A stretch of 64,000 bases of DNA, from positions 21,220 through 85,219 of the forward strand of contig CAISKQ010000060.1 in assembly GCA_903885965.1 (NCBI GenBank), in the 5' to 3' direction. Below, piece by piece: positions 27,294-29,613 of this stretch; position 1 is the stretch's first letter, and the number at the start of each line of letters is the position of its first letter. This stretch comes from an uncultured bacterium (GTDB lineage Bacteria > Patescibacteriota > Minisyncoccia > Moranbacterales > GWC2-37-73). The position numbers and the translations under genes are program-made. The notes beneath the pieces are model-generated. The model was not told where the DNA came from. It was given only the letters and a program-made list of their open reading frames with translations, and made no database searches.

Positions 27294-28046
27294 TTATATC
27301 CCTAAGCTTTCCAATAAAGTCTTCACTTCATCTTCTCCAAGTGCTCGCAATTGACCGATTCGAAGCCTGCCAAGATTGACATTCATAATTCTAATTCTTT
27401 TCAAATCAACCACTTCCCAACCAAGTGCTGTGGTCATACGCCGAATCTGATGCTTTTTTCCCTCTGTCAAGGTAATATGAAAAGTAAGCTCATCTTTTTT
27501 CTCAACAATTGCAGGGCGAGTTTTAAAATCTTCAAGCTGTACCCCTTGGCGCATAACTTTCAAAAAAATATTTGTTATTGGCTTATTCACGCTAACTACG
27601 TATTCTTTTTCATGCTCCCTGTCCGGGTTAAGTAATTTATCCGTAATACGTCCATCATTGCTGAGGATAATAAGACCACGCGAATTTTTGTCCAATCTGC
27701 CAACCGGGAAAACATCATCGGCAACTTTAACCACGTTAGCAATACTTTTTTGCCCATCTTTCGGTGAGTGCGTCACAATTCCGCGTGCTTTATGATAAGC
27801 ATAATAAACATATTTTTTCAATACGCCTTTTTCTTTCACATTAAGCTCAACTTTATCTTTCTCGAAAACCTTATCACCAATTTTAGCTTTTTTTCCATTA
27901 ACAACCACCAAGCCTTTGGTGATATATTCATCTGCTTCTCGCCTACTGCAATAATTGTTAAGTGCGAGATAACGATTAATTCTAATCGGATAGACTATTT
28001 TTTCTTCCATAATTTCATTCATTAAAAACTTATTCTGCCAAGTCAA
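27294..28046 (-). CDS. rRNA pseudouridine synthase, RsuA/RluB family (S4 domain plus PseudoU_synth_2).
   Basis: VFPVGRLDKNSRGLIILSNDG and HQIRRM motifs. Confidence 0.8.
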   Translation of the reverse strand: MTWQNKFLMNEIMEEKIVYPIRINRYLALNNYCSRREADEYITKGLVVVNGKKAKIGDKVFEKDKVELNVKEKGVLKKYVYYAYHKARGIVTHSPKDGQKSIANVVKVADDVFPVGRLDKNSRGLIILSNDGRITDKLLNPDREHEKEYVVSVNKPITNIFLKVMRQGVQLEDFKTRPAIVEKKDELTFHITLTEGKKHQIRRMTTALGWEVVDLKRIRIMNVNLGRLRIGQLRALGEDEVKTLLESLGI

Positions 28047-29613
28047 CCTTGATAGTCTTGACTACTTTTTTTGATAAACTGTATCCCATTCGTTGAAGTA
28101 TAATTTTGAGACCCTGGCAATACTGATCTGGCTGTTCAATTATATCCGCTATCAGCTCATCAATATTGACCCATTTCAGGTTTTGCGCCTGATCCTGATC
28201 TACATAAATTTCATCGTCGTATTTGCCAATCAACACGGTAGTATATTCATTTTCAATGAAACTATTTTCTGCTTCAAATTTGCAGACAAAGCTAAATTTC
28301 TTTTGAAGCTTAGTTTCAATTCCCATCTCCTCCTTAAGCCTTTTTTGAGCTGTGACAAGAAGCTTCTCCCCTGAGACGCTGTGTCCGGAACAAGTGTTGG
28401 ACCAAAGACCAACTGAATGATATTTTTCATCGGATCCCTTTTGAATCAAATGCTGCCCCTTTTCATTATAAATAAAAATTGAAAAAGCTTTGTGCAACTT
28501 ACCCTCTCGATGTGCTCGCAATTTGTCCTCAGTGCCTTTTTCTTTTCCATGTACATCACAAAGCACAACCCTGTTTCGAAGTACCGGACTTTCTTGAAAG
28601 ACAATTCTTTGATCAAAGTATTTGTTATTAATCAACATTCCAAAAACTCGCATCAACATTGGGTTTGGTTTCTCCAAATGTGATTCAAAGAAATTTTTGT
28701 GTGCATCAAAACTCTGAGCTGCAATTTTGATTGCCTCTTTATTTATTTCTCTTTCTGAAATAAGCTCCAGCACCTTTTTCTGCCAAGATAAATTCTTTAT
28801 TTCCTTCGGATTTGTAAGTGCCTTTTGAACTATCTTTTCTTCAATTAAACTGCGCACTGGAAATGTAACAACTCCATTTTTAATATCCGAAAAAATATCT
28901 TGATTGGATTTACCGCTTTTATCAATATTTTGCCCAAAATCACCAAGATCACTAATCATCTGGCTAGCATTTGAAAAACGAAGATTGCTTGGAATCTCAA
29001 AAACATAATTCTCAATGATATCAAAGTTTCCACAAGAAAGTGCAAAACCAATCAATGGTGTGTAGTCATAAACCAGATTAAGACTTGTATTGCGCTCCAC
29101 GTAAACCTTATCCCAATTAAAGATTATATCATCTAAGGACGAAAAATTCACATTCAATTTCTCTCTTTCCAACCAAAAACCATAGGAAAGTTTTCCCATC
29201 AGCTCATCCACCAAGCCTCGAATCTTGTCGATGTACAACAAATCTTTTTTCAAATATGCATTGAACAAATCATTAATGCAAGACAAAACCAAATCATGCT
29301 GCAAAACAGTTTCCATTAAAACAGCCTCCTTTTCCCAGACATCTTGCTTTCTGTCCAGAATCCATTTTGTTTTGTAAGCCCAAATCATCACCAATTCAAT
29401 AATGACAGCTATTTCGATATATTGCTCCCAATTATCATTTGGACCACTTATAAATCCAGCCTGAAATTGAATACCATTAAGATGCACATTTTTCTTTGTG
29501 TAATCATTTTTCAAAAAGCCGTATTGCGGATATTGCTGGCAAAAATCAGCAAAATACTCATTCAGTTTCTTGGAAGTCTCTTTGATTGTTTTTTGATAAG
29601 TCTTTGAATTCAT
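28030..29613 (-). CDS. Fusion protein: about 350-aa all-alpha N-terminal domain of unclear function plus a C-terminal type-1 isopentenyl-diphosphate delta-isomerase (Nudix) domain.
   Basis: C-terminal LHKAFSIFIYNEKGQHLIQKGSDEKYHSVGLWSNTCSGH...EEMGI matches the IDI-1 signature (LHRAFS...WTNSCCGHP...E..E). Confidence 0.7.
   Translation of the reverse strand: MNSKTYQKTIKETSKKLNEYFADFCQQYPQYGFLKNDYTKKNVHLNGIQFQAGFISGPNDNWEQYIEIAVIIELVMIWAYKTKWILDRKQDVWEKEAVLMETVLQHDLVLSCINDLFNAYLKKDLLYIDKIRGLVDELMGKLSYGFWLEREKLNVNFSSLDDIIFNWDKVYVERNTSLNLVYDYTPLIGFALSCGNFDIIENYVFEIPSNLRFSNASQMISDLGDFGQNIDKSGKSNQDIFSDIKNGVVTFPVRSLIEEKIVQKALTNPKEIKNLSWQKKVLELISEREINKEAIKIAAQSFDAHKNFFESHLEKPNPMLMRVFGMLINNKYFDQRIVFQESPVLRNRVVLCDVHGKEKGTEDKLRAHREGKLHKAFSIFIYNEKGQHLIQKGSDEKYHSVGLWSNTCSGHSVSGEKLLVTAQKRLKEEMGIETKLQKKFSFVCKFEAENSFIENEYTTVLIGKYDDEIYVDQDQAQNLKWVNIDELIADIIEQPDQYCQGLKIILQRMGYSLSKKVVKTIKVDLAE

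Follow-up and report, generated by a model that had tools for sequence, protein, structure and literature searches.

A 64,000-nucleotide stretch of DNA from an uncultured bacterium of the Moranbacterales (GenBank assembly GCA_903885965.1, contig CAISKQ010000060.1; the whole stretch is called the window here) carries on its reverse strand a gene for a 527-residue protein in which two domains are joined—at the N-terminus a highly diverged trans-isoprenyl diphosphate synthase (IDS) fold, and at the C-terminus a domain derived from the isopentenyl-diphosphate isomerase IDI-1. Both domain superfamilies are well known; what is new is the altered motif signature common to bacteria of the Candidate Phyla Radiation (CPR) and DPANN archaea, the repeated fusion to IDI, and the fact that catalytic residues of IDI were lost several times over while purifying selection went on. 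In window coordinates, the gene and its main parts are:

28030..29613, reverse strand: the whole gene, 527 codons plus stop, encoding an N-terminal atypical IDS-like domain and a C-terminal IDI-1-like Nudix domain
28609..29613, reverse strand: the IDS-fold domain, residues 1–335, probably a member of the "N/D-type" family described below (fold assigned by profile search, AlphaFold, Foldseek and hhalign)
28576..28629, reverse strand: the conserved NNKYF tail of the IDS-like domain (residues 329–333) and the 11-residue linker RIVFQESPVLR (336–346) to the IDI-like domain
28084..28575, reverse strand: the IDI-1-like Nudix domain, residues 347–510, in which the metal ligands H368, H374, H411, E454 and E456 are kept, as is E429

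The open reading frame (ORF) starts with ATG, with only six codons between this and the in-frame stop upstream. An earlier reading of the bare nucleotides (the sequence-only reading) had proposed an IDI-1 fused to an all-alpha domain at exactly this ORF, and the three motifs it quoted—LHKAFS (residues 373–378), LWSNTCSGH (403–411) and EEMGIE (428–433)—are all present. It had also suggested a search for the same fusion in CPR genomes, where the architecture does recur. Full-length homologs form about 33 clusters at 40–84% identity, and 12 GTDB species-representative genomes, labelled Moranbacteria/Moraniibacteriota, Parcubacteria or "Patescibacteria group", encode the fused version, two of them with the domains in permuted order. 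An identical 527-residue protein is found on six independently assembled contigs (ENA, Logan and NCBI). Given these contigs, clusters and species genomes, the fusion is a real, conserved gene. The full-length AlphaFold model is likewise confident, linker included (predicted local distance difference test, pLDDT, 87.7; predicted template modelling score, pTM, 0.78). The two outcomes that would have undone the sequence-only reading, an N-terminal domain from an unrelated family and two separate genes joined by a frameshift, were both looked for and neither was found; an artefact of frameshift or assembly is ruled out by the identical ORF on six contigs and by an architecture kept across species. 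In one homolog neighbourhood (neighbourhoods are ±10-kb loci, numbered L; homologous proteins are numbered P), that of Moranbacteria GW2011_GWC2_37_8 (L018, 4908–6412), the homolog appears as two overlapping ORFs broken within the synthase-like domain and not at the domain junction, so that this assembly has either a frameshift error or a pseudogene here. A literature search, incomplete in coverage and for that reason no proof of absence, returned no description of the fusion or of the N/D motif family.

A Pfam scan of the query protein leaves the N-terminal domain unrecognised. A profile of this domain built from 17 relatives (A2) has as its best match in the PDB the S. aureus heptaprenyl-type synthase 5h9d (E = 1.5e-9, residues 60–314); weaker matches, at 3e-4 and 2e-3, are to the large subunits of the hexaprenyl and heptaprenyl enzymes. 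The AlphaFold (AF2) model of the domain, a check that the sequence-only reading had put forward, gave a confident IDS fold (pLDDT 87.5, pTM 0.87), and the 50 best Foldseek matches of that model in the PDB are all trans-IDSs of the chain-elongating kind (probability 1.00, TM-score ~0.55–0.70). Among 39 sampled members of the wider family, 27 match PF00348 (polyprenyl_synt; best 1.4e-23), the nearest NCBIfam model is that of the short-chain synthase IdsA (NF040698, 1.8e-27), and hhalign aligns the family with CPR synthases bearing canonical motifs at a probability of 96.8% (E = 2.8e-10). By fold, the N-terminal domain is a trans-IDS that has diverged very far.

These results sort out the guesses of the sequence-only reading about this domain. 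Its description of an all-alpha N-terminal two-thirds without intact DDxxD motifs is borne out, residues 1–335 being all helical in both AlphaFold models and devoid of DDxxD. Its first suggestion, a degenerate isoprenyl-diphosphate synthase, was right as to the diverged IDS origin (profile, Foldseek and hhalign agree) and wrong as to random degeneration, since the altered motifs are the signature of a family of about 400 clusters. Its second, a terpene-synthase-like scaffold, has to be given up: no cyclase stands among the 50 best Foldseek matches, DDxxD is absent, and so is the NSE/DTE motif, (N,D)Dxx(S,T)xxxE, against which the local sequence SDLGDFGQN lacks Ser/Thr at position 5 and Glu at position 9. 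An unrelated N-terminal family was considered as well and is ruled out, only IDS matches having been obtained from the profile search against the PDB and from Foldseek.

An exhaustive HMMER search with the domain profile over 1.84 billion cluster representatives returned only 419 proteins at E ≤ 1e-3, 177 of them at E ≤ 1e-10. The resulting N/D family of about 400 clusters consists mostly of stand-alone proteins of 330–370 residues (an IDI domain is present in five of the best 150) and spans CPR bacteria and DPANN archaea, with named members from Pacearchaeota and Nanoarchaeia; one IDI-fused member, P0034, lies among archaeal ribosomal-protein genes. Conservation was counted over 129 full-length representatives sharing less than 50% identity with one another. 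Near-invariant positions lie in the N-terminal half of the signature (Y80 in 128, N83 in 123, D87 in 127, K89 in 125 and R/K174 in 126) as well as further on (N221 in 126, D222 in 128, D225 in 128 and D243 in 127). The signature as a whole reads E73, Y80-x-x-N83-x-x-x-D87-x-K89, Y171-x-x-R174 and Q-x-x-N221-D222-x-x-D225, with a C-terminal part, D243-x-x-x-G-x-x-T-x-P, followed by an N-K-Y tail. HMMER alignment to 5h9d and hhalign map N83-x-x-x-D87 onto the first DDxxD motif and N221-D222-x-x-D225 onto the second, so that the first Asp of both Asp-rich motifs is replaced, near-invariantly, by Asn; the RRG that follows the canonical first motif is absent, and a conserved Lys stands two residues past D87. 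In structures of canonical farnesyl diphosphate (FPP) synthases, it is this leading Asp, in both motifs, that binds Mg2+ directly. In the query, the equivalents of the canonical regions are:

29473..29496, reverse strand: region I equivalent, KKNVHLNG (residues 40–47), with K41 conserved and Asn where canonical GKxxR has Arg
29347..29376, reverse strand: first Asp-rich-motif equivalent, Y80-K-T-K83-W-I-L-D87-R-K89 (family Y-x-x-N-x-x-x-D-x-K), K83 replacing N83
29089..29103, reverse strand: region IV equivalent, Y171-V-E-R174-N (canonical h-x-x-K-T), with R174 invariant in the fused family
28936..28962, reverse strand: second Asp-rich-motif equivalent, Q218-M-I-S221-D222-L-G-D225-F (family Q-I-x-N-D-x-x-D), S221 replacing N221
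28858..28932, reverse strand: a low-confidence loop (228–238), then the region VI equivalent QDIFSDIKNGVVTFP (238–252), with conserved D239, D243, G247, T250 and P252

The query matches the family model at 3.8e-90 and departs from the signature at two residues only, N83 (Lys) and N221 (Ser), both departures being shared by its whole clade (P0001–P0022). The canonical first motif, DDxx(xx)D plus RRG, is reduced in the query to K83-W-I-L-D87-R-K89, with the last Asp only, and the second DDxxD reads S221-D222-L-G-D225, its first Asp substituted. Invariant positions in the fused clade are K41, E73, D87, R174, Q218, D222, D243, T250 and P252, almost all of them canonical IDS active-site positions. 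Across the wider family, polar residues so tightly conserved at the canonical active site argue for ligand binding or catalysis there. Random degeneration of the domain is ruled out by the conservation of the altered motifs at 95–99% across the family.

The C-terminal domain is IDI-1-derived: residues 347–497 match Pfam NUDIX (3.1e-12) and NCBIfam NF002995 (1.1e-32), the E. coli and Salmonella IDI crystal structures match residues 346–495 at ~2e-13, and the AF2 model has the domain as mixed alpha/beta. It nevertheless falls under both curated IDI equivalog cut-offs, at 113.1 bits for NF002995 (cut-off 127) and 79.5 bits for TIGR02150 (cut-off 105.8), whereas the IDI domains of P0034, P0036, P0037 and P0038 pass both (143–168 and 115–125 bits). 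Four functional positions, given here in E. coli numbering as throughout for IDI, are changed in the query:

28423..28437, reverse strand: GSDEK (residues 393–397), with G393 at the diphosphate-binding R51 position and K397, equivalent to K55, kept
28381..28398, reverse strand: NTCSGH (406–411), with S409 at the position of catalytic Cys67; to be compared with NSVCGH and with the NTCCSH of relatives whose site is intact
28282..28284, reverse strand: C444 at the Tyr104 position
28111..28113, reverse strand: G501 at the Trp161 position

Conserved in the query, by contrast with these R51G, C67S, Y104C and W161G substitutions, are H25, H32, H69, E114, E116, the Mg2+-binding E87, K21 and K55. In IDI-1, acid/base catalysis falls to Cys67 and to Glu116, the latter aided by Tyr104; the carbocation is stabilised by Trp161, and the diphosphate is bound by R51 and K55. 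With these roles, the four substitutions make a competent isomerase unlikely. Judged by its residues, the domain most likely no longer isomerises isopentenyl diphosphate (IPP), and there is a small possibility that the Cys at position 66 and the new Cys at 104 make up a re-wired isomerase site. The "IDI-1 signature" of the sequence-only reading therefore stands as a mark of descent from IDI-1; as a mark of the enzyme it does not, with Ser for Cys67 within NTCSGH itself, three further substitutions and scores below both cut-offs. Set against the Nudix box Gx5Ex7REUxEExGU, the query's GHSVSGE-KLLVTAQ-KRLKEEMGI keeps G, E, EE and GI and has KR in place of RE, and its best matches to Nudix hydrolases are far weaker than those to IDI.

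A neighbour-joining tree annotated with residue states gives the order of these changes. Basal fused lineages have N83, D87, N221, D222 and D225 alongside an IDI whose catalytic residues are all present, and N83K and N221S arose once, in the clade running from the query to P0022. Within that clade, P0007–P0011 keep a fully intact IDI, which shows that K83 and S221 can go with a pathway that is maintained. The query's own sub-clade (P0001–P0006) is a mosaic of W161G/N, C67S, R51G and Y104C/S, its sister sub-clade (P0012–P0022) has K55Q, C67S/A, E116V and sometimes H25Q plus H32Y, and P0041 is a third independent case; the IDI active site has been lost at least three times independently within the fusion family.

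Selection was assessed on codon alignments of ten loci, in which synonymous divergence (dS) is saturated in most pairs, so that only the proportions of nonsynonymous and synonymous differences (pN and pS) and the relative nonsynonymous rate (dN) can be interpreted. Within the fused clades, pN is 0.09–0.21 in both domains against a saturated pS of 0.62–0.87, and both domains are under strong purifying selection. The same is true of the pair L014 and L015, in which the IDI-like domain has neither Cys67 nor Glu116: pN is 0.127 in that domain and 0.145 in the N-terminal domain. The IDI-like domain evolves at 1.0–1.8 times the rate of the N-terminal domain in the query's sub-clade and at 0.6–1.3 times elsewhere, which indicates mild relaxation and not pseudogenisation. 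Because pN is far below pS and the full-length model is confident, the IDI-like domain appears to keep a role independent of its catalytic residues.

IDI has been coupled to synthase-like domains in more than one arrangement. An N/D domain followed by IDI is found in the query's clade and in archaeal members (P0034, L006; P0035); IDI followed by an N/D domain, the permuted order, in P0032, P0033, P0042 and L020; and IDI followed by a compact 285-residue synthase with intact motifs, KIDDILD and QIIDDFED, in P0036. Such repeated, independent fusions suggest that C5 diphosphates, the compounds interconverted by IDI, are used by both synthase types. The compact P0036 type comprises about 41 CPR clusters (P0190–P0230), one of them from Moranbacteria (P0211), and is a candidate for the true FPP synthase or for a partner subunit. 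At L027 (9540–10870), a NUDIX gene lies immediately upstream of a compact synthase of this type; the synthase itself (9977–10867) is fragmented under translation table 11 and does not yield its recorded protein, which suggests a reassigned stop codon of the Gracilibacteria/Absconditabacteria type. Further CPR fusions of IDI-1 involve other partners (P0037, P0038 and P0039)—IDI with a RaSEA-like radical SAM domain in a Berkelbacteria protein, and diphosphomevalonate decarboxylase with IDI—and the IDI domains of all these pass the curated cut-offs.

In the window, the gene is followed closely by another on the same strand:

27294..28010, reverse strand: RluB-like pseudouridine synthase, downstream of the fusion gene and starting 19 nt past its stop codon

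The 19-nt gap contains no terminator-like site, and the two genes are therefore probably co-transcribed. An RluB-like gene also adjoins or lies near the fusion gene in distant relatives, one of them permuted (L004, 12131–12868; L005, 8428–9153), and its recurrence may be plain synteny with no evident functional link. Other neighbours are FtsE/X, release factor RF-2 and glycosyltransferases, and across homolog loci the only recurrent neighbours are TrmB-like regulators and, in the Moranbacteria clade, the pseudouridine synthase. Genes of the TrmB family (PF01978) stand directly beside N/D-type genes, often divergently, in CPR bacteria and DPANN archaea (L005, L019, L022, L025, L029 and L030); the upstream copies in L019 (8166–8906), L025 (9010–9774) and L030 (9031–9801), all on the reverse strand, are closely related (E ~1e-58 to 1e-61). 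Another TrmB-family gene lies near the compact synthase in L028, and the window has none. The N/D genes of L029 and L030 each have an unannotated gene of about 270 codons beside them, and these two genes are not related.

Several reverse-strand regions of the window (468–2585, 3630–4988, 15560–19616 and 26046–27164) hold surface-glycan genes—a fusion of glycosyltransferase families GT2 and GT1, a Wzt-type ABC exporter ATPase with Wzt_C, several GT4 enzymes (also GT2) and a DUF4012 protein. As polyprenyl-phosphate-dependent functions, they are compatible with a need for carrier lipid, without being proof of it. The 1176-residue product of 9183–12713 (reverse strand) has an LCAT/lipase-like alpha/beta-hydrolase domain at residues ~295–512 and might serve to scavenge lipids, for which the bacterium is expected to rely on its host, and a very large ORF of 2328 codons occupies 55587–62573 (reverse strand). 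An Rfam scan of the window found two tRNAs only and no riboswitch upstream of the fusion gene; ARAGORN agrees on both (tRNA-Gln, 31031–31102; tRNA-Thr, 36570–36643). A further ARAGORN call about 200 nt upstream of the gene (29808–29883, reverse strand; "tRNA-???", with an aberrant two-base anticodon) lacks Rfam confirmation and is for that reason probably a false positive. The ~1.4 kb upstream of the gene (29614–31030) contains small ORFs only (114 codons at 30274–30618, 64 codons at 30054–30248), with no Pfam hit on record and no Rfam match.

From the observed folds, family signature, substitutions, phylogenetic order and purifying selection, we tentatively favour one reading, to which we give somewhat less than an even chance: the protein would be a short-chain prenyl-diphosphate enzyme of atypical kind, and the IDI-like module fused to it would have ceased to isomerise in this lineage and been retained in a structural or substrate-binding capacity. 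What follows on its substrate, the length of its product, any residual activity and its role in the cell is inferred. The N-terminal domain may still bind C5 or allylic diphosphates at the canonical IDS active site and would make or handle a short-chain prenyl diphosphate of C15 or shorter. The short product is suggested by the bulky W78 and Y80 just before the first-motif position, by analogy with the chain-length rules of FPP synthases. This prenyl diphosphate could feed the synthesis of polyprenyl-phosphate carriers. The ancestral protein would have combined an N/D domain with a working IDI-1, making the primer dimethylallyl diphosphate (DMAPP) beside the substrate entrance of the synthase; IDI is attached directly past the conserved C-terminal NKY tail of the IDS-like domain. 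In the present lineage, the IDI-like domain may have been retained as a structural and/or C5-diphosphate- or metal-binding module of the synthase.

A number of points weigh against this proposal. The first Asp of each canonical motif, the direct Mg2+ ligand, is Lys or Ser in the query, and the RRG after the first motif is missing; in classical FPP synthase mutants, such first-Asp substitutions abolish activity. The sister sub-clade P0012–P0022 has acquired D225N in the synthase-like domain as well, which, with its IDI substitutions, looks like coordinated catalytic loss in both domains. The compact synthase with intact DDxxD motifs, present in related CPR bacteria including Moranbacteria, could be the real FPP synthase. 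The sequence-only reading had noted that the window seems to lack a full isoprenoid pathway, and indeed no isoprenoid gene was found in the 64 kb with a canonical CPR synthase, a diphosphomevalonate decarboxylase domain, and E. coli IspA and UppS as queries; the neighbourhoods of homologs likewise show no isoprenoid pathway gene or linkage. Finally, Parcubacteria are reported mostly to lack the mevalonate pathway, an absence that leaves the supply of substrate unclear; the same paper has IDI-1 as nearly universal in CPR bacteria (PMC6107057).

The strongest competitor, which we hold to be unlikely if by no means far-fetched, is that the N/D domain is an inactive partner subunit that heterodimerises with an intact-DDxxD synthase of the 285-residue P0036 type and tunes its activity or chain length, IDI being fused to either. 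In this it would resemble the plant geranyl diphosphate synthase small subunit, PDSS2/Dlp1 or HexA/HepS. Both Asp-rich motifs are incomplete throughout the N/D family, genomes differ in which of the two types, N/D or P0036, carries the fused IDI, the P0036 type is present in Moranbacteria (P0211), and in P0012–P0022 the catalytic residues of both domains are lost together while purifying selection persists. At L019, moreover, only 1.1 kb and a TrmB-like gene separate a P0036-type gene (7104–7961, reverse strand) from a stand-alone N/D gene, and the pair might encode the large and small subunits of one heteromeric enzyme. This adjacency was seen, however, in only one of about 20 loci: no N/D gene lies within 8–10 kb of the P0036-type genes at L026 and L028, and no P0036-type gene was found in the 64-kb window. 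Canonical active-site positions conserved at 95–99% among proteins less than 50% identical would also be unexpected in a purely regulatory subunit.

We consider it improbable that the protein is fully bifunctional, an isomerase and an FPP or geranylgeranyl diphosphate synthase with unusual metal ligands, in which Cys408 (position 66) or Cys444 (position 104), for example, would serve as the thiol. The query does keep all five metal ligands, the Mg2+-binding Glu and the E114/E116 pair, has one Cys a residue before the usual site and a new one at 104, and belongs to a family whose fused architecture is conserved with purifying selection on both domains. Four functional positions are nevertheless changed, the states in P0002–P0006 are mosaic—the pattern expected once catalytic constraint is lost—and the score is below both curated cut-offs, with the IDI-like domain running at 1.0–1.8 times the N-terminal rate in this sub-clade against 0.6–1.3 times elsewhere. 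Cys-to-Ser mutants of IDI-1 lose about 10^4-fold in activity, which also counts against an active isomerase.

Quite improbable, in our view, is a neofunctionalised enzyme that would couple two DMAPP molecules irregularly, transfer a prenyl group to a non-isoprenoid acceptor as ComQ and XiaM do, or hydrolyse diphosphates with its Nudix-like domain. A conserved, non-canonical pair of motifs would suit such a role, and plant chrysanthemyl diphosphate synthase is characterised by NDxxD in its second motif. In the IDI-like domain, the Nudix box still has its EE pair, GHSVSGEKLLVTAQKRLKEEMGI, though not the RE pair. Enzymes of IDS fold with altered motifs and new acceptors are known (PMC12510300); yet the genomic context offers no acceptor or product, the curated families nearest to it are IDSs that elongate chains in the ordinary way, and the NSE/DTE motif is absent. 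A decaying pseudogene or an assembly artefact joining two genes, to which the altered catalytic motifs of both domains and the split L018 homolog might point, is of negligible probability, given an intact and repeatedly assembled ORF, full-length conservation in at least 12 species and about 33 clusters, pN far below pS in both domains, a confident two-domain fold, and a break in L018 that lies inside the N-terminal domain and not at the junction.

The most far-reaching of the readings seems to us doubtful. N/D proteins might be a new catalytic class of the IDS fold and the unrecognised short-chain synthase of many CPR bacteria and DPANN archaea, working with a reduced or re-wired metal cluster (Asn ligands in the two motifs and a conserved Lys, with a second Lys taking the place of a metal ligand in the Moranbacteria clade) or by non-head-to-tail coupling of C5 units, and the fused IDI of this lineage might repeatedly have become a pseudoenzyme that binds C5 diphosphates and regulates or stabilises the synthase.

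Little is understood of where ultra-small CPR bacteria and DPANN archaea get their prenyl diphosphates, which are required for the lipid carriers of wall and glycan and for the lipids of archaea. The N/D family, which spans both domains of life, has the IDS fold with DDxxD replaced by a different and equally conserved signature. If catalytic, the family challenges the indispensability of both DDxxD motifs for trans-prenyl transfer and fills a gap in metabolic reconstructions with an enzyme that was missing; should it prove inactive, prokaryotes have in it a new case of a regulatory IDS pseudo-subunit. At least three independent losses of IDI catalytic residues under purifying selection make, in addition, a clean natural case of an enzyme domain turning into a pseudoenzyme. 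There is also a practical side: P0011 is annotated by NCBI as "isopentenyl-diphosphate Delta-isomerase", and this automatic label calls for caution when attached to the fusion gene, as it would over-predict isoprenoid capacity in such genomes.

Among known systems, IDI-1 itself (E. coli Idi, PDB 1NFS/1HX3; NF002995, TIGR02150) has the same fold and metal ligands as the C-terminal domain of the query, which differs in lacking Cys67, R51, Tyr104 and Trp161, in scoring below both cut-offs and in being covalently fused to an IDS-like domain. With trans-IDSs (PF00348; nearest profiles 5h9d, the hexaprenyl diphosphate synthase large subunit 3aqb_B and archaeal IdsA, NF040698), the N-terminal domain shares the all-alpha fold; regions I, IV, V and VI are recognisable, as are D87, D222, D225 and Q218 of the FQ motif, and the D-x-x-x-G-x-x-T-x-P segment and a basic residue at the KT position (R174) are also kept. 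It differs from them in having K-W-I-L-D and S-D-L-G-D in place of the DDxxD motifs, no RRG, and a Lys two residues past D87. Chrysanthemyl diphosphate synthase, ComQ and XiaM resemble it in combining the IDS fold with an altered Asp-rich motif and, in their case, non-canonical chemistry (see also PMC12510300). Those enzymes keep the first DDxxD, however, and the query shows no sequence-level affinity to them and no sign of such chemistry.

The inactive IDS subunits, the plant geranyl diphosphate synthase (GPPS) small subunit and PDSS2/Dlp1, have, like the N/D family, an IDS fold with incomplete Asp-rich motifs; the N/D family differs in keeping its active-site positions at 95–99%, and a candidate partner is adjacent once, at L019, and not in the window. 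Closest in setting is the compact P0036 type, which is a separate family, about 50 residues shorter, at ~18% identity in the profile alignment and with both DDxxD motifs kept, and which nonetheless has in common with the N/D type its superfamily, its phyla and its tendency toward fusion with, or adjacency to, IDI-1.

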